A stretch of DNA of 32,000 nt, taken from positions 420,001 to 452,000 of the forward strand of contig NC_009925.1 of NCBI RefSeq assembly GCF_000018105.1. Reading direction: 5' to 3'. Shown here piece after piece: positions 7,786 through 32,000 of the stretch. Positions within the stretch are counted from its first letter, which is position 1. Each line of letters starts with the position of its first letter. Position numbers and translations under genes: made by a program. The notes beneath the pieces are model-generated. The model was not told the origin of the DNA, made no database searches, and saw nothing but the letters and a program-made list of their open reading frames with translations. The DNA comes from Acaryochloris marina MBIC11017. Lineage in GTDB: Bacteria; Cyanobacteriota; Cyanobacteriia; Thermosynechococcales; Thermosynechococcaceae.

Positions 7786-7823
7786 GTTGCGATGGCGAAA
7801 GGCTGCTCTTTGAGCATCGCAAC
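7786..7823 (+). repeat. Perfect 9-bp inverted repeat (GTTGCGATG / CATCGCAAC, 20-nt loop) just downstream of ackA
   Basis: Read directly from the sequence. No U-tract follows, so a terminator function is uncertain. Confidence 0.3.
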
Positions 7824-7896
7824 TGCAATACCATCCCCTAGGCAAACTAGCTGAATCCTGAACCCAATCTAAATCAAAGCTTCTAGGCATTCACCA

Positions 7897-8295
7897 CTAA
7901 GAGACTAAATGCATCTTCGCCGTTTCGGGGTGAAATCCTGTGGGGAAATGAGTGTTGCGATCGTAATCGGCAGCAGCTAACCGAGCATCGCTTAATTCAG
8001 CTTCTCTCAGATCGGCCCCCATCAAATTAGCCCCTCGTAGATCCGCTCCTTTGAGATTGGCACTTTGCAAAAAAGCTCCGCCTAAGTCTGCACCTCTGAG
8101 GTTAGATCCTTGCAAATTGGCTTCGCCCAGATCCACAGACTCTAGATCTGCCCCTGCCAAGTAGACGTCTTGGAAGTTCACTGCACTCAAATCCATCTCA
8201 CTGAGGGCAATACCGCGTAAATTAGCCCCTGCAAAATCTCGCTTTCCTGAAGCGTATTGGGCAACAAAATCATCTCGATTCATCACTGTCATCAT
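7897..8295 (-). CDS. Pentapeptide-repeat protein
   Basis: Tandem A(D/N)LxG-type pentapeptides (ANLRGIALSEMDLSAVNF..ANLQGSNLRGADLGGAFLQSANLKGADLRGANLMGADLREAEL). The likely start is the ATG pair at 8295/8292 after an AGGGGTG Shine-Dalgarno-like sequence. The track start at 8370 is a longer extension. Confidence 0.8.
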   Translation of the reverse strand: MMTVMNRDDFVAQYASGKRDFAGANLRGIALSEMDLSAVNFQDVYLAGADLESVDLGEANLQGSNLRGADLGGAFLQSANLKGADLRGANLMGADLREAELSDARLAAADYDRNTHFPTGFHPETAKMHLVS

Positions 8296-8651
8296 GGCTT
8301 CACCCCTATCTAGATGGATCGAGTTCAAGGCAAAGTGATCTCTACTTTGATCATAGACCAGCAGTCGCATTTGAACAGAAAGTTACGCTTTTAATTTTCT
8401 GAATTAGTGTAAACCTTGCCAGCTTATAATTTTCGCTGTAGGTCATCAATGAAATATGTCACAGTCCATGCAAGGGTCACACTTTTCTTTGTGGACAAGT
8501 GCGGAGAGCTACTTTTAGGTAAGGGTTTAAGATTTTTTTAGCTGCCAGAAAGTGGCCTCTGGCATTGTTAAATAGATTGACTGTATTCTGGAGCCTAGAA
8601 GGAGATCGTTCAGCGGATTGAGGCTGAAGCAACCTCCTTTTCAACGTGCTC

Positions 8652-9743
8652 TTAGCTCGTCATTATCGGAATCGTAGGAATTTCCTTAGACTCGGTTGAA
8701 GCTAGCGTTAAGGAGAAGTGATGGGCATTAACTGAATGCATCACCTGTAGTCCCATCGTGGCCCGATTCAAGAGATCGGCTTCGGTGCGGATGGGTCGTC
8801 CACTGCTATCGAGCAGAGAGTGATTGAAATTAAACCCATTCAAATTGAATGCCATCGTGCCGATGCCTAAAGCGGCAAACCAGATACCGATCGTGGGCAG
8901 TACCGCCAATAGAAAATGAATGGAACGGCTATTACGAAAGGCAATATCAGGGATAAACAAGCGTCCTAGATATCCAGCATGTCCCGCGAGTAAATTATAG
9001 GTGGCTTCCTGTTGGCCAAATTTATACCCCGTATTAACAGATTTCAGGCTAGAGGTTTCCTGAACCAAGCTGGAGGTGACTAAAGAGCCATGCATGGCAC
9101 TGAGGAAGGCTCCACCAAAGACACCGACTACCCCCAACATATGAAACGGATGCATCAAGATATTATGTTCCGCTTGAACCGCCATCATAAAGTGGAAGGT
9201 GCCGGAAATTCCTAGGGGTAACCCTTCGGAGAAGCTTCCTTGTCCCATTGGGTACACCAATAGCACTGCCGTGGCAGCAGCAACTGGGGCAGAAAAAGCC
9301 ATAGCAATCCAGGGACGCATACCCAGACGATAGCTCAACTCCCACTGTCGCCCCAGATAGGTCCAAATAGCGATCAAAAAATGCAAGATGATCAGTTGAT
9401 AAGGCCCTCCGTTGTAGAGCCACTCATCCATCGATGTAGCTTCCCATAAGGGGTATAAGTGTAAACCTATTGCGGCTGAAGTAGGTATCACCGCAGCAGT
9501 AATCACATTACTTCCACCTAGAAGAGAACTGATAATAGGTTCACGAATACCTTCCATATCAACAGAAGGGGCCGCCACCCAGGCGAGCATGAAGGTTATG
9601 GCTGAAACGAATAGGGATGGAATCATCAGTAGGCCAAACCAACCAACATAGAGCCGATTGTGGGTACTGGTAATCCACTCACAAAATTGGTCCCAGGCGG
9701 AAACAGTGGGTAATCTCGATGGAGTTTGAAACGTAGTAGACAT
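8652..9743 (-). CDS. psbA: Photosystem II D1 paralog lacking Mn4CaO5 ligands (rogue/sentinel-type D1)
   Basis: Aligns over its full length with canonical D1 recalled from memory. Retained: Tyr161, Glu189, His190, His198, His215, His272, His332, His337, Ala344. Substituted: Asp170->Glu (GQGSFSEG), Glu333->Ser and Asp342->Thr ([15 protein letters not shown]). AGGAG lies 9 nt upstream of the ATG. Confidence 0.88.
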
Positions 9744-9777
9744 AGTTATTGCTCCTGTTAGCGTGATGGAGTTGAGA

Positions 9778-10209
9778 TTAAGTATTGGGTTTGGGCCCTA
9801 AATGTCCTGGAGTCGTAACTGTAAAGCCAGATGGATAACCCGAAATCGTGTTGAAACCGCACTGACGCCAATGCTGCATGCCACCCGATAAATTGAATAC
9901 CTGAGTGAACCCAGCCTTGAGCAATTGGGCTGCTGCCAGGGGACTACGATGGGATGTTAGACACACCACTACTATGGGCTGGTCCTTAGATAAGGCTTGA
10001 AACCAATCAGGAAGGACCCACCGGTTGATGATGGGGAGTTGGCCGATGAGCAGGCGTAATAAACTGAGATTGATGGCATTAGGGATATGTTCTGCTCGGT
10101 ATTCTCCGACACTGCGAACATCCAGTAGCAGTGGGGGTGGAATGAGTTTGGTGTAGGCCAACGGCGAAACCTGAGTCACCGAAGCGCGGTGTGAATGATA
10201 GTTATACAT
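9778..10209 (-). CDS. Single-domain rhodanese (thiosulfate/persulfide sulfurtransferase)
   Basis: Rhodanese fold motifs are present: [21 protein letters not shown], the active-site loop [10 protein letters not shown] (Cys-X4-Arg) and NLSGGMQHW. It starts 51 nt downstream of the Rieske fusion gene and ends 34 nt upstream of psbA. Confidence 0.85.
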
Positions 10210-10260
10210 AGTCGTAGAAATAGAATTGGGGTGAGAAATGAATGGTCAGTGGTGATGGCG

Positions 10261-11292
10261 CTAGGCCACGGTGCCGAGGGGTTGGGCGTCAACGTAGTCT
10301 TGGATAAAGTGCAGCAGTTGGGGGTGTGCGGCTAGGGGCAGGTCCAGTTTGTGAACTTGGGCCAATAGCTGGTCTGTGGTCCATTGCTGATGAACGGCTT
10401 CGTAGAGCAATGCCATCGCACCAGAGCGTAACCCTCCTTTGCAATGCAAGAGAATGGGTTTGGATAGCTGATCTATGATCGTCAACACTTGTTCAGCCGT
10501 GGCCTCTGAGAGGTCTGCTGGATTAATGGGTAGATTGGCATAGTTCATGCCTGCGCTGTGCACAAGTTGGGACTCATTGATGAGAAAGCCGTCTTCCTGA
10601 GGCGATCTCAAATTCAATACAGACTTAAACCCCAGTTGGGCCGCATCTTGAATCTGGTCAGGGGTTGGCTGGAGCATAGCGACGGAGAGCTGCTCATTGA
10701 TTTGAAGGGTATATTGCATGAGATTTTCCGGTGTAGGGTGGTCATCAAAGGTATCCGCCTTGACCCACCAGGGGCGGTCCCCGGTGCGTGGGTCAAGCTC
10801 GGTCCAAGGCAGAATCCAGATTTGTTCACCTTCAACTTGGACATGCACCAACTTGAGGGGTCGATCGGCAGGACCGCGCACCACGGAACCATCGGCTGCA
10901 AAGCGAGATCCGTGGCAAGGACATTGAAATTGATCGGCAGCACCATTCCAGGGAAATGTGCAGCCTAAATGGGTGCAGTTATCGACGATGCCCCGATCCT
11001 CAATTTGACCTGTGATCGTCAGGGTTAAATAGGTCGGTTCACTATCTAGTCCTGCCACGAGGGCACGAGTGCCAGGCGGTTCTGCCAAGAGTTGACTAGT
11101 GGGGATGGGGTTGCCCAGGGCATCCTTTGCTAGAACCCGCCCCGCCCCTCTGCTGGAGTTTGGGGGTACAAAAACACGACTGATGGGATAGAGGGTTGCA
11201 CCTGCCGTGATGGCTACCGCCGACCCGGTCAAGAAATTGAGAAACCGTCGCCGGGAGAGAGAGGGCTGAGAAATAGATAAACTCTCGTTCAT
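10261..11292 (-). CDS. Fusion protein: Tat-signal PetC-type (cytochrome b6f) Rieske iron-sulfur protein + C-terminal DUF442 (PTP-like sulfurtransferase) domain
   Basis: N-terminal half: [24 protein letters not shown] (twin-arginine signal plus TM helix), AKDALGNPI, Rieske boxes CTHLGC and [12 protein letters not shown], and [14 protein letters not shown], which is a b6f PetC-type C-terminus. C-terminal ~150 aa: [32 protein letters not shown] (DUF442-like HCxxGxRS loop). GGAGA lies upstream of the ATG. Confidence 0.85.
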
Positions 11293-11322
11293 AGAGATTC
11301 TCCGAGCTGAGGGTGGGTAGAG

Positions 11323-11535
11323 TTATTGGGAAAGTTGACGAGCATTAGTGTGAATCCCCAACAATCGATAAATCGGACAGAACCCCAGTAAGGCGGTAAA
11401 GGTTGGAATTGCGGCTGCGATCGCTAACCCCATACCGAGGGTTGAGCCGCTATAGGTGCCTAATCCTAAATAAAGTAGTAATCCACCCAAACCTATTCGA
11501 AACAGGCGATCCATTAAGCCCAGATTTTTGGTCAT
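11323..11535 (-). CDS. DUF2892 / YgaP-like small membrane protein
   Basis: 70 aa. The pattern GLMDRLFRIGLGGLLL...LLGFCPIYRLLGI is typical of the YgaP-like transmembrane domain. A strong AGGAGG lies upstream. This is the first gene of the minus-strand operon. Confidence 0.7.
   Translation of the reverse strand: MTKNLGLMDRLFRIGLGGLLLYLGLGTYSGSTLGMGLAIAAAIPTFTALLGFCPIYRLLGIHTNARQLSQ
11417..11424. repeat. HIP1 octamer GCGATCGC
   Basis: Exact match read in the sequence. Confidence 0.95.
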
Positions 11536-11584
11536 CTTTTTTGCCTCCTAGATTTGTAGAGTGATAAGCAAGATGATATTAATC

Positions 11585-11600
11585 ATTATATAACTATATA
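11585..11600 (-). promoter_or_regulatory. Candidate promoter/operator 16-mer TATATAGTTATATAAT (read on the minus strand) upstream of the DUF2892-Rieske-rhodanese-psbA operon
   Basis: Identical at 16/16 positions to 21262-21277 upstream of arsR, in the same orientation relative to the downstream gene. Its 3' hexamer is a consensus -10 TATAAT, 49 nt before ATG 11535. Confidence 0.5.
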
Positions 11601-11854
11601 GTAATTAAAGCAATATATTCTTTAAATGACATTCTGTAAGTCTTGCCAGCCCTATTCTTATTTAGCGGTTTAGACGTTGTATTTGACGACTGTTTGGACT
11701 AAATAAAATTCTCTAAAAGTATCTTTTATGTACTTCAAGACCTTTCTAAGTCTAGATCAGTCTCCTTCAGATTCATCAACAGTATCCTCTGGTGAAAGCG
11801 GAGTTGATGCTGCAAGCAGGAATGGCCTGATGAAATTAAATTTGACTATATTGC

Positions 11855-11870
11855 TATTTAGTTATATATT
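11855..11870 (+). promoter_or_regulatory. Related site TATTTAGTTATATATT on the sqr side of the divergent region
   Basis: Matches the shared 16-mer at 14/16 positions and is oriented toward sqr. It lies 196 nt upstream of ATG 12067. Confidence 0.3.
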
Positions 11871-12066
11871 GAAGATCAGCTTAAAATCGAATGATTAGTA
11901 TCAAAGCTCAGGTCTTGTTTTATCTCTAGTGCTGCTTGCAGTGACCTATCTAGTACAACCCGCTTGCTCCAAGCCTATGGAGATTTAGAAGAAGGCTAGC
12001 CCCCTTCAACCTGCGCAACTTAATTAATTGAAATCCTTTTCAGACCGACCTTTGAGAGGTTTATAT

Positions 12067-13377
12067 ATGGCTCATATTGTTGTCATTGGAGCAGGATTGG
12101 CAGGATTGCCGACTGCCTATGAGTTGAGGTACCTGTTACCTAGTCAGCATCAAATTACCCTGATCTCCAATACCTCTAAATTCACATTTATTCCATCCCT
12201 TCCTTGGGTCGCGCTAGGGCTGATCCCCTTGGCTAAGATTCAGTTAGAACTGGAGGAGTTGGTGATTCAACAGGGAATAAGATGGCTCCCTGAAGCGGTG
12301 GTTCACCTGAATCCTCGGACTCAAACTGTTTATACAGATTCTCAGTCTTTGGCCTATGACTACGTCGTCATTGCCACCGGAGCCGAGTTAGCCTTGGATA
12401 CGGTATCCGGCCTGGGACCAGAGCAGGGCTTTACCCAGTCGATTTGCAATCCTCACCATGCTTTAATGGCCAACAGTGCTTGGCAAAATTTTTTACAGAA
12501 TCCGGGTCCTTTAGTGGTGGGGGCAGTGCCCGGGGCAAGCTGTTTTGGCCCTGCCTATGAGTTTGCCTTATTAGCCGATTACACTCTTCGCCAGCAAGGG
12601 TTGCGGGATCAAGTTTCCCTTACATTTGTGACACCGGAACCCTATGCGGGGCATTTGGGGATTGGCGGCATGGCAAATTCTAGCCAGCTCGTGACGGAGT
12701 TGATGGCGGCCAGAGACGTGGCAGTTTTGGAGAATACCGCCATCGACTCCGTCACATCTCAGGAGATTATTTTGGCCAATGGCGACGCGGTGCCCTTCCA
12801 GTACGCTATGTTGCTGCCGCAGTTTCGAGGGCCTGGCTTTGTTCGTGAGACAGCGGGGTTAGGGGATACCAAGGGGTTTCTGCCCATATTGCCCACCTAT
12901 CAGCATCCTGTTTTTCCCTCAGTGTTTAGTGCAGGTGTTGTCACTCAATTAGCACCACCAGAGGTAACTCCGATAGCAATCGGGGTGCCAAAAACTGGAC
13001 AAATGGTTGAAGCAATGGGGATGGCAGTGGCTCACAATATTGCCCTGGCCTTAGGGGCCATCTCAGATCAGCCTGTTACCCCCACCTTAGAAGCCATCTG
13101 CTTTGCAGACTTTGGAGATACAGGATTACTCTTTTTGGCGGACCCCGTTCTGCCTGATCCAGTGACGGGACGGCGACGCCGCGCCATTACCCTAGGGGGG
13201 CGTTGGGTGGGTTGGTTGAAAACAGCATTTGAACGCTATTTTCTAGCCAAAATGCGCTGGGGAGCTGCCGTCCCTTGGTTTGAGCGCTTGGGGCTTCGGG
13301 CCGCGGGTTTTTCTTTGTTAGAGGCCGCTCCTTCGACGGAACCTGACTCGGTACGCGAGGACGTCCTGATTCATTGA
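12067..13377 (+). CDS. sqr: Sulfide:quinone oxidoreductase, type I
   Basis: MAHIVVIGAGLAG FAD fold. Colinear with Rhodobacter and Oscillatoria SQR as recalled, including the three conserved Cys contexts TQSIC, GASCFGPAYEF and AICFADFGD, plus GVPKTGQM and ERYFL. ATG 12067 follows GAGAGG. The track start at 12028 is a TTG extension. Confidence 0.93.
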   Translation: MAHIVVIGAGLAGLPTAYELRYLLPSQHQITLISNTSKFTFIPSLPWVALGLIPLAKIQLELEELVIQQGIRWLPEAVVHLNPRTQTVYTDSQSLAYDYVVIATGAELALDTVSGLGPEQGFTQSICNPHHALMANSAWQNFLQNPGPLVVGAVPGASCFGPAYEFALLADYTLRQQGLRDQVSLTFVTPEPYAGHLGIGGMANSSQLVTELMAARDVAVLENTAIDSVTSQEIILANGDAVPFQYAMLLPQFRGPGFVRETAGLGDTKGFLPILPTYQHPVFPSVFSAGVVTQLAPPEVTPIAIGVPKTGQMVEAMGMAVAHNIALALGAISDQPVTPTLEAICFADFGDTGLLFLADPVLPDPVTGRRRRAITLGGRWVGWLKTAFERYFLAKMRWGAAVPWFERLGLRAAGFSLLEAAPSTEPDSVREDVLIH

Positions 13378-13555
13378 GAGCTGACGCGTTCTTTCAATAG
13401 GCATACATGTTGATTCCCCTGCAATGGATCAACTTACTCTGCGAGCTAGCGCTTTATGCTTTTCAGTTGACCAAGGGATTTCTAGCACTATCTCAGAATC
13501 TAAGAAAGGTAGATTTTTTTACCAATACTGCTGATATGGAGGGTATGGAGTCATT

Positions 13556-14902
13556 GTGATCGATGTTTTGACTCAAAGAATAGGGGCGAGGCCGAGACTT
13601 CCACGCTGGAGTGCTTTAGCATTGCTCTTGGCGGTATCAAGTGGAGCAGCCTGGTGGGTTTTTAATCTACGTCTATCCCGAGAGACACCGACGGTTGCTG
13701 CGCATTCGCCGATGGTCGTGAAGACTGCGATCGCAACTCGGCAACCCATAGCCATAGATCGGATCCTTACAGGCACCGTTGAATCATCTGAAGCGGTCAC
13801 TCTGACCAGTCGAGTCATGGGCCAAATTCGGCAGCTGACGGTGCGCGAAGGAGATATCGTTCAAGCGGGACAACGGATCGCTGAAATCGATGTCCGCGAT
13901 ATTCAAGCCCAACAGCAGCAAGCAACTGCGGCGATTCCTCAAGCGCAATCAGCAGTCAGTATTGCCCACTCAGCGAAACTGACCGCCCAAGCGCAAAAAA
14001 GTCAGGCCCAAGCTCGTGTCCAAGAGGCTCAAGCTCAACTGACCGAAGCGCAAGCCGAACTCGCAGATGCCCAACTCCATCAACAAAGGATGGTGATGCT
14101 AAGGCGAGAAGGAGCGGTGAGCCAATCTCGTTTGGATGAGGCGAATACGCGCTTGTCGGTGATTCAGGCTCGTATCAGTCAAGCGAAAGCCGGACTGACT
14201 CAATCCCGCACGACGGTGAGGCAAGCCCAGGCTGCCGTGGTTCAGGCCCAAGCTCAAATCCGTCAAGCTCAAGCCCAAGTTGAACAAGCTCAGGCTCAAG
14301 TGAAACAAACTCAAGCCAACCTTGACTATGGGACTGTGATTGCCCCCTTCACAGGCGTGATCAGGCATAAATACACCGAAGTGGGGGCAATGGCAGGTCC
14401 CGGCGAATCAATTGTGAAGTTAGAACGCAGCGGTCATCTGAGACTGAGTGTTGATGCTCCTGAATCTCTGGTAGGCCAAATTCAACGAGGCAAATCCGTC
14501 TTAGTTCAAATCGACGCGCTTAATCGCCAGATCGCAGGCCGCATTAATCAAATCATCCCTGCTGCTGATCCCAGATCTCGAAACTTCACCGTTAAGATCG
14601 CCTTGAAGCCAAACCAAGACTTGCTACCAGGCATGTTTGGTCGATTACAGTTCAGCTCCATTACTCGTCAAAATGCTGCTGCTCGCCAGGGTCTCATGAT
14701 TCCTGAAGATGCGATAGTCAAGCAATTTGGCATCACAGGGGTCTTCAAAGTCGTAGGCCAGCAGGCTCAGTTTAATCCTATTACCACGGGACAGATTGAG
14801 GGCAAAACAGTGGAGGTCTATTCAGGACTAGAGAGGGGAGATCGCATCATTGTCAATCCCAGCCCCAAACTTGAGAACGGAACGGCTCTTCAAGTGAGTT
14901 AG
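13556..14902 (+). CDS. RND/HlyD-family periplasmic adaptor (membrane fusion protein)
   Basis: N-terminal TM anchor, a lipoyl-like segment (VREGDIVQAGQRIAEID), a long Q/A-rich coiled-coil hairpin, then APFTGVI and beta-barrel segments. GTG start after GGAG. Confidence 0.85.
   Translation: MIDVLTQRIGARPRLPRWSALALLLAVSSGAAWWVFNLRLSRETPTVAAHSPMVVKTAIATRQPIAIDRILTGTVESSEAVTLTSRVMGQIRQLTVREGDIVQAGQRIAEIDVRDIQAQQQQATAAIPQAQSAVSIAHSAKLTAQAQKSQAQARVQEAQAQLTEAQAELADAQLHQQRMVMLRREGAVSQSRLDEANTRLSVIQARISQAKAGLTQSRTTVRQAQAAVVQAQAQIRQAQAQVEQAQAQVKQTQANLDYGTVIAPFTGVIRHKYTEVGAMAGPGESIVKLERSGHLRLSVDAPESLVGQIQRGKSVLVQIDALNRQIAGRINQIIPAADPRSRNFTVKIALKPNQDLLPGMFGRLQFSSITRQNAAARQGLMIPEDAIVKQFGITGVFKVVGQQAQFNPITTGQIEGKTVEVYSGLERGDRIIVNPSPKLENGTALQVS
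13727..13734. repeat. HIP1 octamer GCGATCGC
   Basis: Exact match read in the sequence. Confidence 0.95.
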
Positions 14903-20188: not shown

Positions 20189-21067
20189 GTAAAGCTCTCA
20201 AGGTACTAATCTGTCAATACACAAACACTGGACAGGACCTAGAGAGCAATGCCTACAGCATATGATAGCGACCTCACCACCCTGCAATGGGAATTACTTG
20301 AGCCTTTGATTCCTGCTGCTAAACCTGGAGGTAGACCTCGCACCACTGATATGCTCAGTGTTCTCAATGCCATTTTTTATCTCGTGGTTACAGGTTGTCA
20401 GTGGAGACAACTACCTCATGATTTTCCCTGTTGGTCAACGGTCTATAGCTATTTTCGAAGGTGGCGCGATGATGGGACTTGGAGTCAAATCAATGAACAT
20501 CTACGCATGCAAGTGCGGGTGAGTGAAGACCGTCATCCCAGTCCCAGTGCCGCTATCTGCGATGCTCAATCGGTCAAAGTCGGCAATCCTCGGTGTCACT
20601 TGATTGGGTTTGATGGTGGGAAAATGGTCAAAGGTCGTAAACGTCATGTGCTCGTTGATACTTTAGGGCTGGTTTTGATGGTGATGGTCACTGCTGCCAA
20701 TATCTCTGACCAACGAGGGGCCAAAATACTGTTTTGGAAAGCTCGACGCCAAGGTGCGAGTTTGTCCCGTCTAGTTCGGATATGGGCCGATGCTGGCTAT
20801 CAAGGACAAGCTTTGATGAAGTGGGTAATGGACCGTTCTCAATATGTCTTGGAAGTGATCAAACGCTCAGATAATCTAGCGGGGTTTCAGGTTGTTTCCA
20901 AACGATGGATTGTAGAACGGACGTTTGGATGGTTGTTGTGGTCTCGACGTCTTAATAAAGATTATGAGGTGCTGACTAGGACGGCTGAAGCGCTTGTTTA
21001 TGTGGCGATGATTCGACTCATGGTTCGAAGGCTAGCGCAGGAGCACTAAAACTTCTCAAACAGCCTC
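20170..21067 (+). mobile_element. Intact IS5-family (IS1031-group-like) insertion sequence, 898 bp
   Basis: Perfect 17-bp terminal inverted repeats GAGGCTGTTTGAGAAGT (20170-20186, and the reverse complement of 21051-21067). A 3-bp direct duplication TCA flanks it (20167-20169 and 21068-20170 side: 21068-21070). It carries a single transposase ORF. Size, GAG ends and the 3-bp DR fit my recollection of the IS1031 subgroup. Confidence 0.85.
20249..21049 (+). CDS. IS5-family DDE transposase
   Basis: 266 aa. N-terminal DLT..QWELLEPLIP...GGRPR..D.....NAIFY...TGCQWR.LP..FP.W.TVY.YF.RW..DG.W. DDE region VDTLG..., IWADAGYQG, VERTFGWL..RRL.KDYE. Confidence 0.9.
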   Translation: MPTAYDSDLTTLQWELLEPLIPAAKPGGRPRTTDMLSVLNAIFYLVVTGCQWRQLPHDFPCWSTVYSYFRRWRDDGTWSQINEHLRMQVRVSEDRHPSPSAAICDAQSVKVGNPRCHLIGFDGGKMVKGRKRHVLVDTLGLVLMVMVTAANISDQRGAKILFWKARRQGASLSRLVRIWADAGYQGQALMKWVMDRSQYVLEVIKRSDNLAGFQVVSKRWIVERTFGWLLWSRRLNKDYEVLTRTAEALVYVAMIRLMVRRLAQEH

Positions 21068-21101: not shown

Positions 21102-21261
21102 CAATTACAATCGCTCTCAATTGGTGACCAGAATACAGATGAGATGCCTTCAAATGACTCTGAATCCTTCCTCGGGCGTGAAAGGGGCAGGGGCGGATCG
21201 AGAATCGACAAAGATCCAAATACTGATCATCACCTGAGAGGAAGATTCATCTATGAAAGGT

Positions 21262-21277
21262 TATATAGTTATATAAT
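21262..21277 (+). promoter_or_regulatory. Candidate autoregulatory promoter/operator TATATAGTTATATAAT upstream of arsR
   Basis: Lies within the palindrome TTATAT-AGTT-ATATAA (21261-21276). It is identical at 16/16 positions to the minus-strand site at 11585-11600. It ends in a consensus -10 TATAAT (21272-21277), 35 nt before ATG 21313. Confidence 0.5.
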
Positions 21278-21312: not shown

Positions 21313-21675
21313 ATGTCCGACATTGTTGATAAACAAGTTTCTCCAGAAGTACTCGTAGCTGTGGCTGACTATTTTAAGGTTCTTTCAGAGGTCAGCCGCT
21401 TGCAGATCCTCAGCAACCTTAGATCAGGCCCCATGACGGTTAATGATCTGGTGGATGCGACAGGTCTTGGACAGGCCAATCTTTCCAAACATTTAAAGGT
21501 GTTGACTCAGGCGGGTCTTCTCTCCCGCACCCCCAGTGGCGTCAGTGCTTACTATGAGATTGTCGATCCACTGGTGTTTGAACTGTGTGAATCAGTGTGT
21601 GATTCCATTAGCGATCGCTTATTGCAGCAGGCACAGAAATTTAATCAATTCAAATCCTTCAGCAAATCGTCATAG
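21313..21675 (+). CDS. ArsR/SmtB-family winged-helix transcriptional regulator
   Basis: Motifs FKVLSEVSRLQILSNL....MTVNDLVDATGLGQANLSKHLKVLTQAGLL.R..G....Y. The only cysteines are Cys92 and Cys96 (ELCESVCD) in the predicted alpha5 helix. Confidence 0.9.
   Translation: MSDIVDKQVSPEVLVAVADYFKVLSEVSRLQILSNLRSGPMTVNDLVDATGLGQANLSKHLKVLTQAGLLSRTPSGVSAYYEIVDPLVFELCESVCDSISDRLLQQAQKFNQFKSFSKSS
21611..21618. repeat. HIP1 octamer GCGATCGC
   Basis: Exact match read in the sequence. Confidence 0.95.
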
Positions 21676-21777: not shown

Positions 21778-22494
21778 ATGCAGTCCCTTAACCAGCTGAT
21801 GGAGTCCTATGCTGCCGGACAGCGAGACTTTGCCCACAGCCAACTTCTCGAAGCAGAAATTGTGAAGGCTGATTTGGCAGGTATTGATCTGAGTCGGGCG
21901 GATCTGCGGCAAGCTCGGCTTGGACGTACCAATTTCAGTCATGGAACGTTTAGGGAGGCAGATTTAAGTGAAGCCCTGCTATGGGGGGCGGATTTAAGCG
22001 GGGCCGATCTTAGCAGCGCAGTATTGCGCGAAGCTGATTTGAGTGGGGCTAAATTAGTCCAGGTTAATCTGGCCAAGGCCAACCTCTACAAAGCCAGCCT
22101 GTGTGGGACTAATCTAAGGCAGGCCAATCTCACGGAGACCATTTTGTATGAGGTGGATTTAAGACCTTCCTTGGATCAGGGAACCGATTTGGGGGAGGCC
22201 GATCTGACCAATGCGGAGTTGAATTATGCCCATCTGAGTGGGGCAACGTTGGCCCACGCTATCTTAGTGGGGGCTAAACTTTGCCGCGCAAACTTGAGTC
22301 AGCAAGGATGGGGGGGACAGGTGCCGACGGATTTAAGGGGAGCTGACCTCCAACAGGCTGATTTGAGCTATGCAGATTTGCGTGGTGCTTGGTTACAAGA
22401 GGCCAACCTCCGCCGAGCGGATTTAACGGGGACCGATTTAGGGGGTGCCCAATTGACAGGGGCCATTATGCCGGATGGGCGGACTTATACCTAA
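21778..22494 (+). CDS. Pentapeptide-repeat protein
   Basis: 238 aa, almost entirely A(D/N)L(S/R)xA-type pentapeptide repeats (ADLSEALLWGADLSGADLSSAVLREADLSGAKL...). Confidence 0.85.
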   Translation: MQSLNQLMESYAAGQRDFAHSQLLEAEIVKADLAGIDLSRADLRQARLGRTNFSHGTFREADLSEALLWGADLSGADLSSAVLREADLSGAKLVQVNLAKANLYKASLCGTNLRQANLTETILYEVDLRPSLDQGTDLGEADLTNAELNYAHLSGATLAHAILVGAKLCRANLSQQGWGGQVPTDLRGADLQQADLSYADLRGAWLQEANLRRADLTGTDLGGAQLTGAIMPDGRTYT

Positions 22495-23581: not shown

Positions 23582-23798
23582 GGGGATCTGCTCTCTTATG
23601 CTCTAAAGTGGAGTGCTAAATAATTTTATAGCCATGAAGTAGTTTAAAGGGGTATTTACAAGAAACACCTTGCATTATGGTTTTTTAATAAAAAGAGACA
23701 TGGCTTAAAAGTCCTTTAAACAGAACTTATGGTGTGGGTAGACAATATTTCGGTAAAAATTTTTGCTATTTCAATTAAACAACCATATAGTTATTATT

Positions 23799-27138: not shown

Positions 27139-29445
27139 ATGACTGAAGACTTTGTAACCTCATCGCCTCAGCATTCACAGTCCTGGCAGCAAGCCATTCT
27201 AGATAGTGCCGATTTCGTTATTGTTTCAACAGATATTAATGGGTTAATTCAAACCCTAAATGCAGGAGCATTAAAACAATTTGGCTATTCACCTGAGGAA
27301 ATCATTGATAGAGTCACCCCAATCATCTTTCATGACCCAGAAGAAGTCGAGCAGCGGGCGCAAGTCCTCTCCCATGAGTTGGGCCATGCCATTGAACCAG
27401 GTATGGAGACCCTTATCGTCAAAGCACGTATGGGGATGGTCGATGAAAATATCTGGACCTTGATTCGCAAAGATCACAGTCGGTTCCCCGTTCGCTTATC
27501 TGTTACAGCACTTAGGAATGATTTAGGCCATTTAACAGGGTTTCTCGGGATTGGCAAAGATATTACTGCGCAACAAGCTGCTGAAGCCTCTCTAGTCGAA
27601 AGCGAAGCGCGATTCTCAGCCGCGTTTCAAAATGCTCCTATAGGCATGGCTTTAGTGTCTCCCAGTGGTCAGTGCCTAAGAGTGAATCATGCCCTAGCTC
27701 ATTTACTGGGATATCCCCAAACCAAACTGATGGATCTCATCCTCACTGAGATGATCCATCCCAAAGATCGATCCATAGAAGAAACGAACCGACTACGACT
27801 TGTTGCAAGAGAGATTGGCAACTACTGCTTAGAGCTACGCTGTCTTCATCAGCAGGGGCATGAGGTATGGGTTTTGATGAATGTATCTCTGGTCAATGGC
27901 CAAGAGGTTTACCCTCCCTACTGCATTGTCCAAGTACAAGATATTACCAGGCGCAAACAAGCAGAAGCACAACTCCAGCGCCTCAACGCCAATCTGGAGC
28001 AACTGGTTGAGGAACGGACTCGCCAACTCAAAGAAGCGATTGAAACCACTGAAATCGCCAATCAAGCCAAAAGCCGATTTATCGCCAATATGAGCCATGA
28101 GTTTCGCACGCCTCTCAACGGCATCATGGGTTTTAGTCAACTCTTGCTTCAAGATCGTCGCATTACGTCAGATCAGCAATCTAACCTCAATGTCATCCTT
28201 CGCAGTGGTGAGCACTTACTCTCGCTGGTCAACGAAGTCATTACCCTCTCCAAGATTGAAGCAGGAATGCTTGCCTATGAGTCCAAAGATGTCAATCTGC
28301 ACCATCTTTGTGAGGGGGTGGAAGACTTATTATCCCTACAGGCGAATTCCAAAGACATTCAGTTTCAAATTCATATCGCTCCTGACGTTCCCCAATACGT
28401 GAGAACAGATGCTAAAAAACTACGGCAAATCTTGATTAACTTACTGGGTAATGCCTTGAAGTTTACGAAACGAGGCAGTGTCGTGTGTCAGGTGCAGTGG
28501 CGGCCTTCGGCACCGGAGCGCTCTGCCCATGAATTACATTTCATCATTCAAGATACAGGTCCAGGGATTCCTGGGCATTTACTACCTCAACTTTTTGAAC
28601 CCTTTGCTCAAGACCCGTTGAATCGTGAGACATTTGGTGGCATTGGCTTGGGGCTAACCATTTGCCAAAGATTTATCCATCTGATGAAGGGGGACATTTC
28701 CATTGAGAGTGTTGAGGGGCAAGGAACAACCGTTAGTTTTTACATTCAAGTTGAATCAGGTGAGCCTGTTCTAGAACCAGCAATATCTGAGACAACCGTT
28801 GAGGGTCTTGCAGAGAATACTCCCTCCTATCGCGTTTTAGTCGTAGAAGATTATCCTGATAACCGCGAGATTTTGCTCATGATGCTTGAAGTAGTGGGGT
28901 TTGAGGTCAAAGAGGCTGTGAATGGCCAAGAGGCAGTGGACCTTAACCGAACATGGCAACCCCATTTAATTTGGATGGATTTACAGCTGCCTGTATTAAA
29001 TGGCCTGGAGGCTACTCAATTAATCAAATCCCAGAATCCAAATCCACCTGTCATCATTGCCATCACCGCCCAGGCGCTGGAATCTGACGAAGTGAAAGCG
29101 CTCAAAGCTGGGTGCGATGACTATCTTCGTAAACCCTATCAAGCCGCTCAAGTTTTTGAGAAAATGGCTCAACATTTAGATATCACCTATCGTTATAAAA
29201 CGTCCAATTCATCTCATACTTCAGCAGATCCGATTTCTCTCTCGGCAGATGAGTTAGCCAACATGCCCCCTTCCTGGATACAGCTTCTGTATGATGCTGC
29301 CATTATGTTGGATGAAGATATGCTTGATCTCTTGCTTAGAGACATTCCTGATGACCAGCACTCCCTTAAATCTTCTTTGGAGTATCTAATGGCCACTTAT
29401 CAATATGACGTCATTATGGAGAAGGCTCAAGCGGTTTTGAGATAG
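27139..29445 (+). CDS. Hybrid sensor histidine kinase / response regulator (PAS-PAS-HisKA-HATPase-REC plus a C-terminal ~85-aa tail)
   Basis: Two PAS modules (each ending ..GIGKDITAQ and ..[11 protein letters not shown]), a coiled coil, the H-box [18 protein letters not shown], the N/G boxes [19 protein letters not shown] and GGIGLGLTI, and a receiver domain [12 protein letters not shown]...IWMDLQLP...KPY. Confidence 0.9.
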
Positions 29446-30110: not shown

Positions 30111-30142
30111 TTATATAGCTAAATAGATATATGGCTATATAA
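30111..30142. promoter_or_regulatory. Perfect 9-14-9 inverted repeat TTATATAGC-N14-GCTATATAA upstream of the RND pump gene
   Basis: Read directly from the sequence. The half-sites resemble the TATATAG / TATATAAT halves of the 16-mer shared by 11585-11600 and 21262-21277. The right arm overlaps a TATAAT (30138-30143), 32 nt before ATG 30176. Confidence 0.4.
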
Positions 30143-30175: not shown

Positions 30176-32000
30176 ATGGTCCACTCCTCTGTTGTTGCTC
30201 CGTCGCATAAATTGAGCCTTGTGGGTCGGATTACGGCTTACTTTATCAACTCTCAAGTGACGGTTTTGCTGATTGCTGCCCTTGTTCTGTTTGGAGTTGG
30301 GGCAGCCGTCTTCACCCCGCAAGAAGAAAATCCTCAAATTGTGGTTCCAGCGGCTGAGGTTATCCTGCCTTATCCCGGTGTTTCTGCGGAGGTGGTAGAG
30401 AATATGGTCACTAACCCCATAGAGGCTAAGTTGCGAGAACTCACAGGAGTGGAGCATCTCTATTCCGTCTCCCAAAACTCAGGGGCCAAAATTACTGTGC
30501 AGTATTTTGTGGGGGAAGACTGGGAAGATTCTCTCTTCAAACTGCAAAATCATCTCTACAATCATCAAGATCTACTGCCCCCAGAGGCGTCCTATCTCGT
30601 CAAACCAGTGATTATCGATGATGTTCCTATTGTGACCCTGACGTTGACAGGGAAAGGCTATACCGATAACCAGCTTCGTCGAGTGGGAGAGCGACTTCTC
30701 AATGATTTACGTAGTATTCCAGACACCGCCAATTTGACGATGGTGGGTGGGAAACCCCGTGCCATTCGGGTGGACTTGGACCCCGATAAACTGGCTAGTT
30801 ATCGCCTCTCCCCTGCTCAGATTAGTCAGCAACTCCAGGTGGAGAATGTCCAACTGCCCACGGGGGATGTATCTGTTGGAGAAACCCGCCTATTTTTAGA
30901 AGGGGGCAATCTGTTTCAGTCTGCCGCAGATGTGGGGGAGATTATGGTGGGCTTTGGCACTGCCACGGATCAGGGCCATCCCCGTCCCATTTACCTCAAA
31001 GATGTGGCGGCGGTCGTGGATGATTTTGGCGATCTCACCACGGTATCGCGAATTCATTATCGACCAGACTGGGATATTGCCAATCCCTATCCAGACCCCA
31101 GCAGTCAGGCTCAAGGGGAATTTATCACCCAGCCTGCGATGACGATTGGAATCGCTAAGAAAAAAGGCACGAATGCGGTTACCGTTGCCCAGCAGATTTT
31201 TGATCGAGTGGATGATCTCCAATCCCAACTGCCACCGGGGGTGCAAATTGCCGTTACCCGGAATGATGGTCAGACCGCTGCCAGGGCCGTCGGCGATCTC
31301 TACCAAAGTTTGCTGATCGCCATTGCCACTGTCGTGGGGCTACTTGTGATGTTCCTGGGGTGGCGGGAAGCTGCCATTGTCGCCTTTGTGATTCCCCTGA
31401 CCTTAGCGGGGACACTAGCCGTAGGCTGGTTAGCGGGACAGACGATTAATCGTATTACCCTGTTTGCCCTGATCTTGGCCTTGGGGACGTTGGTGGATGA
31501 TGCGATCGCAGTTACCGAGAATATTCACCGCCACTTTGAATCTGTGCTGCCATCTGACCGACGGCAGAAAACGGCTGCCGCCATTAGCGCTGTTAATGAA
31601 CTGGGCACCCCGATCCTGTTATCGACAATCACCGTTATATTGGCCTTCTTACCGATGAGATTTGTGACGGGAATGATGGGACCATATATGGGACCGATTC
31701 CCTTTAATGTGCCGGTGGCGATGCTGATTAGCACAACCCTAGCCGTAACGGTGACGCCTTTTTTAGCCCTACGTTTAATTCAGCTACAGCCCCACTCAAA
31801 GACATTGCCCAGTATTCAACAGACCCGCATTTATCGCGGCTATCGCTGGGTGATGGCTCCCCTCCTTGACTCCGCGTCCCGACGACGATTTGTATTGCTG
31901 GGGGTGACGGGATTACTCTTAGCAACAATGATCTTACCCCTGACTCAGGCGGTGCGGTTTCGGATGCTGCCGAAAGCCGATAAAGATACCTTCCTGGTGC
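30176..32000 (+). CDS. RND efflux transporter permease (AcrB/CzcA superfamily), 3'-truncated by the window edge
   Basis: Not in the ORF track because no stop is reached. My manual translation from ATG 30176 is open for 608 codons: MVHSSVVAPSHKLSLVGRITAYFINSQVTVLLIAALVLFGVGAAVFTPQEENPQIVVP..., then a periplasmic porter region, then the TM cluster WREAAIVAFVIPLTLAG...INRITLFALILALGTLVDDAIAVTENI...ELGTPILLSTITVILAFLPM. Confidence 0.9.
   Translation, partial: MVHSSVVAPSHKLSLVGRITAYFINSQVTVLLIAALVLFGVGAAVFTPQEENPQIVVPAAEVILPYPGVSAEVVENMVTNPIEAKLRELTGVEHLYSVSQNSGAKITVQYFVGEDWEDSLFKLQNHLYNHQDLLPPEASYLVKPVIIDDVPIVTLTLTGKGYTDNQLRRVGERLLNDLRSIPDTANLTMVGGKPRAIRVDLDPDKLASYRLSPAQISQQLQVENVQLPTGDVSVGETRLFLEGGNLFQSAADVGEIMVGFGTATDQGHPRPIYLKDVAAVVDDFGDLTTVSRIHYRPDWDIANPYPDPSSQAQGEFITQPAMTIGIAKKKGTNAVTVAQQIFDRVDDLQSQLPPGVQIAVTRNDGQTAARAVGDLYQSLLIAIATVVGLLVMFLGWREAAIVAFVIPLTLAGTLAVGWLAGQTINRITLFALILALGTLVDDAIAVTENIHRHFESVLPSDRRQKTAAAISAVNELGTPILLSTITVILAFLPMRFVTGMMGPYMGPIPFNVPVAMLISTTLAVTVTPFLALRLIQLQPHSKTLPSIQQTRIYRGYRWVMAPLLDSASRRRFVLLGVTGLLLATMILPLTQAVRFRMLPKADKDTFLV
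31502..31509. repeat. HIP1 octamer GCGATCGC
   Basis: Exact match read in the sequence. Confidence 0.95.

Follow-up and report, generated by a model that had tools for sequence, protein, structure and literature searches.

Described relatives of the locus

Genes for alternative D1 proteins of photosystem II (PSII) can lie close to sqr, the gene for sulfide:quinone oxidoreductase (SQR): psbA genes of Group 2 or 3 were reported at most five genes from sqr in about 15 cyanobacterial genomes (Grim & Dick 2016, PMC5061849). These authors also noted arsR-like genes near sqr and proposed linked regulation and PSII reformulation in anoxygenic photosynthesis. In the same year, Hernandez-Prieto, Lin & Chen (2016, G3; PMC5295598) placed the Rieske gene AM1_0450 of the chlorophyll-d cyanobacterium Acaryochloris marina MBIC11017 upstream of psbA1, and regarded the two as probably co-transcribed with genes for a DUF2892 protein and a rhodanese. 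Here, we analyse the same DNA within a window of 32,000 nucleotides of contig NC_009925.1 (genome positions 420001–452000; adding 420000 to a window coordinate yields the position listed in Table S3 of PMC5295598). The locus in question is the operon AM1_0451–AM1_0448 with the divergent sqr gene AM1_0452. The fusion protein and the D1 match ABW25506.1/AM1_0450 and ABW25504.1/AM1_0448 (‘D1 1’) exactly. An earlier reading of this stretch, made from the letters alone (the sequence-only reading), knew of no described operon of this kind. That claim falls, as AM1_0448–0451 were discussed by Hernandez-Prieto et al. and sqr–psbA proximity was published that same year. The operon, the genome and the expression data are already in print, the link between sqr and anoxygenic photosynthesis has already been hypothesised, and the locus is not a new system.

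The two studies differ from ours in what they cover. The main text of PMC5295598 is without sqr or sulfide, does not name the fusion partner of the Rieske protein as DUF442, and contains neither an operator nor a synteny survey. PMC5061849 does not mention Rieske, rhodanese or YgaP genes (0 occurrences) and holds no expression data and no cis element. We found no single paper that joins the rogue-D1/Rieske operon with the proposal on sqr and anoxygenic photosynthesis. The Discussion of PMC5295598 assigns DUF2892 to AM1_0449 and rhodanese to AM1_0451; the tables of that paper, like the sequence, have the two assignments the other way round. Our additions are the recognition of the fusion partner as DUF442, with a predicted location in the lumen; a Tyr to Phe change in the Rieske cluster box; the finding that an alternative PetC and Group-2 D1 are syntenic across lineages; and a candidate ArsR operator common to four promoters.

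Other described systems resemble parts of the locus. The slr1181–slr1185 cluster of Synechocystis PCC 6803 contains an alternative D1 gene (psbA1, slr1181), the rhodanese-like slr1184 and petC2 (slr1185), and low O2 induces it (Summerfield 2008, cited in PMC5295598); Hernandez-Prieto et al. themselves pointed to it as an analogue of the A. marina genes. However, the D1 of that cluster belongs to Group 3 (D1′) and retains every ligand, its psbA1 opens the cluster instead of closing it, and PetC2 is not reported as fused, although PetC2 and slr1184 could be compared by description only. The activator known from Synechocystis is ChlR, of the MarR type. The sentinel D1 of Cyanothece ATCC 51142 (PsbA4) is likewise a Group-2 D1 without ligands of the oxygen-evolving complex and is expressed when O2 evolution has to be off (Wegener 2015), but it is tied to night-time N2 fixation and is not described as lying in an operon with Rieske or sulfur genes. 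A. marina MBIC11017 is not a diazotroph. In the BigR–Blh operon of Xylella and Agrobacterium (PMC5823870), a DUF442 sulfurtransferase system that the cells require during hypoxia and H2S stress is governed by a repressor of the ArsR family with a thiol switch, and the sulfurtransferase activity of DUF442 has been shown in Xylella Blh. This DUF442 has an ETHE1 persulfide dioxygenase as its fusion partner, is cytoplasmic, and has no photosystem or cytochrome b6f components beside it. Sulfurtransferase activity has also been shown in the DUF442–SQR fusion of Cupriavidus pinatubonensis (PMC9163753), where DUF442 is tethered to a sulfide-oxidation enzyme of the quinone pool and limits sulfane-sulfur accumulation. 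In that fusion the partner is SQR, whereas in A. marina it is the b6f Rieske protein, and SQR is separate and divergent.

The operon, its expression and its products

In air, the four operon cistrons and sqr are silent; microoxia without sulfide induces all of them strongly and together. This is seen in the RNA-seq read counts of PMC5295598 for air, microoxia and hyperoxia (Table 1), where microoxia was N2 flushing to below 0.2% O2, with no sulfide added, and the five genes rose 30- to 800-fold. The operon genes have 604 to 1691 microoxic reads versus 1 to 23 in air, in agreement with the proposal of the sequence-only reading that they act as one transcription unit. Its expectations of a psbA response to low O2 and of an sqr induced together with the rogue-D1 operon are likewise borne out by these counts. 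Sulfide as the trigger, which it also proposed, is not supported: induction was full under N2 microoxia without sulfide, and psbA1 also rises, to ~50% of psbA transcripts, after the b6f inhibitor DBMIB (Kiss 2012, as cited in later work).

The layout of the genes is also that of an operon. They lie on one strand with gaps of 30, 51 and 34 nt, as the coordinates of the open reading frames (ORFs) confirm, with no promoter-like or terminator-like site between them and with coordinated published expression. The second gap depends on the start of the rhodanese gene, which is ambiguous: the longest ORF, also chosen by other gene callers, begins at the ATG at 10209, and the GenBank start used by Hernandez-Prieto et al. 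lies 30 nt downstream at 10179, which makes the gap 81 nt. An AGGAG Shine–Dalgarno sequence is found 9 nt upstream of the psbA1 ATG, which itself lies 34 nt past the rhodanese stop. A terminator and promoter scan of 7800–12200 gave no terminator-like site and placed promoter-like sites only in the intergenic region, none of them inside the operon; their total of 4, compared with 6.0 expected, is not above chance, and alone such a scan is weak evidence for an operon. In the tables of PMC5295598, the Rockhopper boundaries of the operon genes are either empty or coincide with the start codons, and no 5′ end can be derived from them.

The last cistron, psbA1, encodes a D1 whose residues we read from an alignment to PsbA2 and PsbA3 of T. 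elongatus. It scores 297 bits with Photo_RC and 577 with the psbA family TIGR01151, under the cutoff of 596, and shares 67% identity with the Group 3 and Group 4 references. Residues Y161, E189, H190, H198, H215, H272, H332, H337 and A344 are kept, and the metal cluster is altered by D170→E, E333→S and D342→T. Cardona 2015, who treated the A. marina gene itself as rD1/Group 2, described Group 2 as having D170 usually replaced by E, E333 always lost (to A, less often S, also G), D342 replaced (sometimes by T) and H332 kept. AM1_0448 shows the same residues (E170, S333, T342 and H332) next to intact cofactor ligands; its E189 is less common within Group 2 in the same comparison. The Group-2 signature is also present in about 115 of its 120 nearest relatives in a collection of 5.8 billion proteins. 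Judged from its residues, AM1_0448 is a Group-2 or rogue D1 that lacks two Mn4CaO5 ligands, a class assignment based on nearest-neighbour signatures and the literature classification rather than on a formal tree. The sequence-only reading was therefore right to call it a rogue type and not a standard water-oxidising D1. Its count of three missing ligands was slightly overstated: E333 and D342 are lost, but D170E is a conservative change that still allows O2 evolution in Synechocystis mutants (Cardona 2015). PSII containing this D1 is predicted to stop or minimise O2 evolution. Further differences are Q130, N181H, E244A, F255L, S264A, E329Q, R334V and a one-residue insertion after H252; among these, S264A, F255L and E244A alter the QB pocket and suggest that acceptor-side turnover would be changed too.

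The second cistron, AM1_0450, joins a PetC Rieske protein (aa 1–177) through a linker of ~12 aa to a DUF442 domain (aa ~190–336). The Rieske part has the membrane anchor, a twin-arginine motif (SRRRF) at the N-terminus, the cluster boxes CTHLGC and CPCHGS, and full length: residues 5–176 align with 6–178 of the 179 residues of the b6f PetC 2zt9_D (170 bits). It matches TM_PetC (PF25471, 58.9 bits), Rieske and BLH_phosphatase/DUF442 profiles, and passes the NCBIfam PetC equivalog NF045928 (258.5 versus a cutoff of 250). The canonical CPCHGSQY reads CPCHGSRF, with the Ser kept and the cluster-bonding Tyr replaced by Phe, so that the PetC pattern CPCHGSxY is broken; the same change is found in most fused homologues. 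In bc1 complexes, this Rieske Tyr to Phe change lowers the midpoint potential, and by analogy the AM1_0450 Rieske is predicted to have a lower midpoint potential as well. A normal PetC ends at PWWV, whereas AM1_0450 runs on through the linker, modelled with low confidence, into an α/β domain of 150 residues, modelled with predicted local distance difference test (pLDDT) values of 78–96. Foldseek matches this domain to the DUF442 structure 3GXH (TM-score 0.76, probability 1.0) and also to 2F46; DUF442 PF04273 scores 35.8 bits (cutoff 26.1), and TIGR01244 stays under its cutoff (43.9 versus 85.85). Cys284, in the active-site loop HC284xxGxRS of this PTP-like fold, is invariant in 16 of 16 fused homologues. 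From profiles, model and characterised relatives, the fusion partner appears to be a sulfurtransferase-type DUF442 domain with predicted sulfurtransferase activity. The anchor is the sole hydrophobic segment of AM1_0450, and in b6f the Rieske head is located on the p-side of the membrane; with this topology, the DUF442 domain should face the lumen or periplasm. Such a location fits the twin-arginine motif, as twin-arginine translocation can transport a fusion in its folded state.

The other products also agree with the sequence-only reading, whose assignments of a YgaP-like protein, a PetC Rieske::DUF442 fusion, a rhodanese and a psbA paralogue were upheld by Pfam and NCBIfam profile matches. 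AM1_0451 matches YgaP-like_TM (PF11127, 66 bits), with a hydrophobic segment at residues 32–56 and one Cys, Cys53, in an FCPIY motif. AM1_0449 matches rhodanese PF00581 (70 bits), carries Cys83 in a CLTSHR loop and has no signal peptide. The best solved homologue of the SQR, which is encoded divergently across an AT-rich gap as had been noted, is the type-I Aquifex enzyme 3HYV (325 bits over residues 2–408). All three catalytic Cys (Aquifex C124, C156 and C347) are kept, in the motifs SIC, SCFGPAYEF and AICFADFG, and by these features AM1_0452 is a type-I sulfide:quinone oxidoreductase.

Gene order in other lineages and a shared promoter box

The PetC::DUF442 fusion is rare. We found ~17 protein clusters with 54–92% identity, and the next nearest relatives are unfused PetC paralogues (55–67% identity). 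Across the species representatives of GTDB, it is confined to metagenome-assembled genomes (MAGs) of Acaryochloris and of Thermosynechococcaceae. A GTDB scan with the DUF442 half gave 80 loci, the A. marina record itself not among them; most were unfused DUF442 genes of other cyanobacteria, Acidobacteriota or Planctomycetota and were set aside as irrelevant. An sqr divergent from ygaP–petC(±DUF442)–(rhodanese)–Group-2 psbA, or a variant of this, was found at loci L007, L009, L011, L012, L014, L015–L018, L020 and L022. In L011 and L016, sqr–arsR and a gene for an RND membrane-fusion protein (MFP) are divergent from ygaP–petC::DUF442–(HSP20-like)–rhodanese–psbA, and L022 has ygaP–petC::DUF442–rhodanese–psbA. 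Two variants have an unfused petC: L012, with sqr–arsR divergent from DUF302–ygaP–petC–...–psbA–rhodanese, and L014, with sqr divergent from ygaP–petC–psbA. L013 carries a petC–psbA pair alone, with no sqr nearby. In L007, sqr is divergent from ygaP–petC::DUF442 with no psbA, and a Ser/Thr kinase gene occupies the psbA position; in L009 and L020, from Thermosynechococcaceae or stromatolite MAGs, the fusion is followed by a psbA fragment of 122 aa (9139–9507 in L009, 9271–9636 in L020). The D1 cistron can thus be lost while sqr–ygaP–petC::DUF442 stays.

The conserved core is an alternative PetC gene followed by a Group-2 psbA, usually with ygaP before it and usually divergent from sqr. As the same gene order recurs in distant lineages whose proteins are only 50–75% identical, the arrangement is not due to chance, and the objection that it might be absent outside the window fails. 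It is not a general property of Group-2 D1: this was considered and rejected, as Leptolyngbya hensonii, Synechococcus PCC 7336 and Planktothricoides have a solitary Group-2 psbA. Stanieria keeps ygaP–psbA only. Two Acaryochloris MAGs, IP29b_bin.137 and bin.176 (L015 + L018 and L016 + L017), each have two paralogous modules in which sqr is divergent from ygaP–petC::DUF442. Between copies, the fusion proteins share only ~50–63% identity, and therefore the module was duplicated or acquired twice. Synteny with sqr extends to the MFP gene in L009 and L011.

Footprinting of the sqr–ygaP intergenic region against five orthologous regions gave two conserved 14–20-mers; the best 14-mer had a mismatch sum of 7, compared with 15–17 in shuffled controls. 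Both words are one box, CTATWTAGYTATATA, in the same orientation relative to each divergent gene, and the box is composed of tandem 8-bp palindromes, CTAWWTAG. At up to 3 mismatches, the window has 17 matches versus 0.74 expected, a number reached in 0 of 100 shuffles. Its four best sites lie at four promoters, those of the ygaP operon, sqr, the arsR gene AM1_0463 and the acrB gene AM1_0471 (Table 1). In relatives it lies upstream of ygaP or petC in L007, L009, L011, L013, L018 and L022 and near sqr in L007, L014, L018 and L024; in L009 it is also upstream of the AM1_0463 orthologue. Weak matches with 3 mismatches are present at 23616–23630 and 23776–23790, between the divergent acsF and heme oxygenase genes, whose Synechocystis equivalents are controlled by ChlR.

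AM1_0463 is a generic ArsR/SmtB protein (NF033788, 78.8 versus a cutoff of 55), and orthologues occur within the module or next to it in L009 (58% identity) and L014 (50%). We infer that it is a candidate repressor of the box set, acting through a thiol switch. Assignment to the BigR/SqrR persulfide sensors was tried and rejected: unlike the regulator of the BigR–Blh system, AM1_0463 misses the BigR cutoff (NF040642, 30.5 bits versus 155), its PDB matches to BigR and SqrR are weak (27 bits), and its Cys pattern differs from C42/C108 of BigR. No decayed sqr-adjacent arsR (type B) was found between sqr and the MFP gene; the small ORF AM1_0453, which sits where relatives carry this arsR, has no similarity to ArsR proteins. 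The IS4-family transposase AM1_0462 may have separated the regulator from its targets, as the orthologous arsR of relatives lies in or beside the module. The box promoters point to one ArsR-type regulon within a low-oxygen island of ~26 kb.

In PMC5295598, nearly all genes of the whole window are up by 2–7 log2 units in microoxia, and the window as such is a low-oxygen island. AM1_0453–0460, AM1_0463, acsF/ho/hemN (AM1_0465–0467) and acrB AM1_0471 all rise by 3 to 7 log2 units; from air to microoxia, reads go from 3 to 206 for the MFP gene AM1_0454, from 257 to 2635 for arsR and from 14 to 396 for acrB. On one side, the island holds adhE (partial), xfp phosphoketolase, pyk and ackA, and on the other nrdG, NMO, a pyridine-nucleotide disulfide oxidoreductase, arsR, acsF, heme oxygenase, hemN and acrB. 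A hybrid histidine kinase gene is not in the published list of differentially expressed genes (PMC5295598); its product might sense O2 or redox state on behalf of the island. Two genes for pentapeptide-repeat proteins, each induced in microoxia, lie on either flank of the regulon (Table 1). The AcrB-type pump AM1_0471 is the likely partner of the MFP, 15 kb apart and co-induced, with a box upstream of the pump gene and, for the MFP, at the upstream sqr promoter. Whether this RND pump exports a sulfur species is a question raised by the co-induction and the boxes.

Table 1. Features of the locus and its surroundings in window coordinates, with read counts from PMC5295598 in air/microoxia/hyperoxia, or in air and microoxia where two values are given.
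Feature	Position	Strand	Reads	Remarks
AM1_0447, pentapeptide-repeat protein	7897–8370	-	118 to 529	Alr5209-like; directly downstream of psbA1
AM1_0448 (psbA1), Group-2 (rogue/sentinel) D1	8652–9743	-	23/711/25	ORF, 363 aa; last cistron
AM1_0449, single-domain rhodanese	9778–10209	-	12/772/3	ORF, 143 aa
AM1_0450, PetC Rieske::DUF442 fusion	10261–11292	-	5/604/7	ORF, 343 aa
AM1_0451, YgaP-like/DUF2892 small membrane protein	11323–11535	-	1/1691/0	ORF, 70 aa; first cistron
Divergent control region between operon and sqr	11536–12066			531 bp, 35% GC
Box CTATATAGTTATATA, candidate operator	11587–11601	-		Between -10-like TATATT and ygaP ATG; 0 mismatches
Promoter-like hexamers, ygaP operon	CTTACA at 11640, TATATT ending at 11612	-
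Promoter-like hexamers, sqr	TTGACT at 11842, TATATT ending at 11870	+		Spacer 17
Box CTATTTAGTTATATA, candidate operator	11854–11868	+		Overlaps spacer and -10 of the sqr promoter-like site; 0 mismatches
AM1_0452 (sqr), type-I sulfide:quinone reductase	12067–13377	+	4/173/8	ATG at 12067
AM1_0453, ORF without family match	13407–13559	+	0 to 87	50 aa; at the place of the sqr-adjacent arsR of relatives
AM1_0454, RND membrane-fusion protein	13556–14902	+		3′ of sqr
AM1_0462, IS4-family transposase	20249–21049	+		Between the sqr-side gene block and arsR AM1_0463
Box TTATATAGTTATATA	21261–21275	+		-34 to -20 of the published arsR transcription start (441295 = window 21295)
AM1_0463, ArsR/SmtB-family regulator	21313–21675	+		C92xxxC96 near the C-terminus
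AM1_0464, pentapeptide-repeat protein	21778–22494	+	6 to 381	Directly downstream of arsR
Hybrid histidine kinase	27139–29445	+		768 aa; 2–3 PAS, HisKA, HATPase, receiver
Tandem box units	30111–30142			Upstream of AM1_0471 (ATG 30176)
AM1_0471, AcrB-type RND pump	30176–32000	+

Possible roles of the module

We think it somewhat probable that the module acclimates the photosynthetic chain to low-O2, reducing and often sulfidic conditions. One ArsR-type, thiol-based repressor would probably keep the set off until anoxia, over-reduction, or a build-up of sulfide or sulfane sulfur. Once induced, SQR would oxidise sulfide and pass the electrons to plastoquinone, and the sulfane sulfur would be handled by the cytoplasmic rhodanese, the membrane-bound YgaP-like protein and the p-side DUF442 domain tethered to the Rieske head, with possible export by the RND components. 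Cytochrome b6f would take up an alternative Rieske subunit of lower potential, and PSII a D1 with an altered QB pocket that is unable to build the normal Mn4CaO5 cluster, which would stop or minimise O2 evolution and PSII-driven plastoquinone reduction. Sulfide detoxification is, we infer, the minimum function of the module; sulfide-driven electron flow through photosystem I (PSI) is a possible extra. Several points weigh against this acclimation reading. Its sulfide role in A. marina is putative, D170E could still permit some metal binding, and the lumenal placement of DUF442 is taken from the known topology of PetC. The published boundary columns give no single 5′ end, and co-transcription is based on equal induction and tight spacing rather than on read-through data. 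Binding of AM1_0463 to the box is likewise presumed, the protein falls outside BigR/SqrR, and its gene lies 9.4 kb from the operon, past an IS4 element; the box itself is AT-rich and overlaps -10-like sequence. Finally, such neighbours are missing around many Group-2 D1 genes (L095, L096 and L097).

The module may instead be a sulfide-sensing toggle to sulfide-driven, PSI-only anoxygenic photosynthesis, with sulfide or persulfide as the inducer and SQR as the main electron input. The divergent, co-induced sqr and rogue-D1 operon with their common box would suit such a toggle, as would the ArsR-type gene that accompanies sqr in relatives and the rise of a psbA and a petC gene with polysulfide in Synechococcus 7002; Grim & Dick 2016 (PMC5061849) proposed the same link on the basis of sqr–psbA proximity in 15 genomes. 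However, full induction was reached without sulfide, in N2 microoxia and with DBMIB, AM1_0463 is not of the characterised BigR/SqrR type, and we found no published report of anoxygenic photosynthesis in Acaryochloris. Fermentation genes, nrdG and low-O2 tetrapyrrole genes all belong to the co-induced ~26 kb around the locus, which therefore resembles a piece of a general regulon for low O2 or over-reduction more than a switch devoted to sulfide. A sulfide-triggered switch to anoxygenic photosynthesis is plausible but unproven, and we regard it as unlikely.

Far less credible is a photosystem with an alternative donor, in which PSII with the rogue D1, the Rieske–DUF442 protein, or both directly oxidise reduced sulfur on the lumenal side. 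The D1 does retain Y161, H190, the P680 ligand H198, E170, E189, H332 and H337, with only E333 and D342 lost, the tethered sulfurtransferase would lie on that same (p) side, and ideas on alternative donors appear in Grim & Dick 2016 and in Murray 2012. However, such a reaction is purely hypothetical biochemically, the altered QB pocket (S264A, F255L and E244A) argues for low turnover, and the sentinel D1 of Cyanothece forms an inactive PSII (Wegener 2015, as cited in later work). We consider it just as improbable that the genes are merely co-located on a horizontally acquired low-O2 island, with D1 and Rieske functionally unrelated to the sulfur genes. Although the island contains an IS4 transposase (20249–21049), sqr is often transferred horizontally within cyanobacteria, and some Group-2 D1 genes are solitary, co-location is largely refuted by the conserved synteny among lineages with only 50–75% identical proteins. 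Gaps of 30–51 nt, equal induced transcript levels, the common box and the physical fusion of the Rieske gene to a sulfurtransferase domain also speak against it.

The acclimation reading brings together the enzyme through which sulfide enters, carriers of sulfane sulfur, an alternative Rieske subunit for b6f and a non-water-oxidising D1, all of which this locus unites in one co-induced block. Two separate papers of 2016 each covered half of this picture, and neither joined the halves. The candidate operator and repressor, the predicted lumenal sulfurtransferase on PetC and the list of genomes with the same module offer handles on it. In its furthest form, which we hold to be quite doubtful, anoxia or sulfide and an ArsR-type repressor on the CTAWWTAG-repeat operator would switch on a complete alternative chain, with SQR feeding plastoquinone, a low-potential Rieske carrying a lumenal sulfurtransferase, and a D1 that does not oxidise water. 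If this were true, A. marina and its relatives would be able to live facultatively as anoxygenic phototrophs driven by sulfide, and their sulfur relay tethered to b6f would be one undescribed in any organism. Both models of Proterozoic oxygen levels and the physiology of microbial mats are touched by the question of how cyanobacteria stop oxidising water and turn to sulfide.

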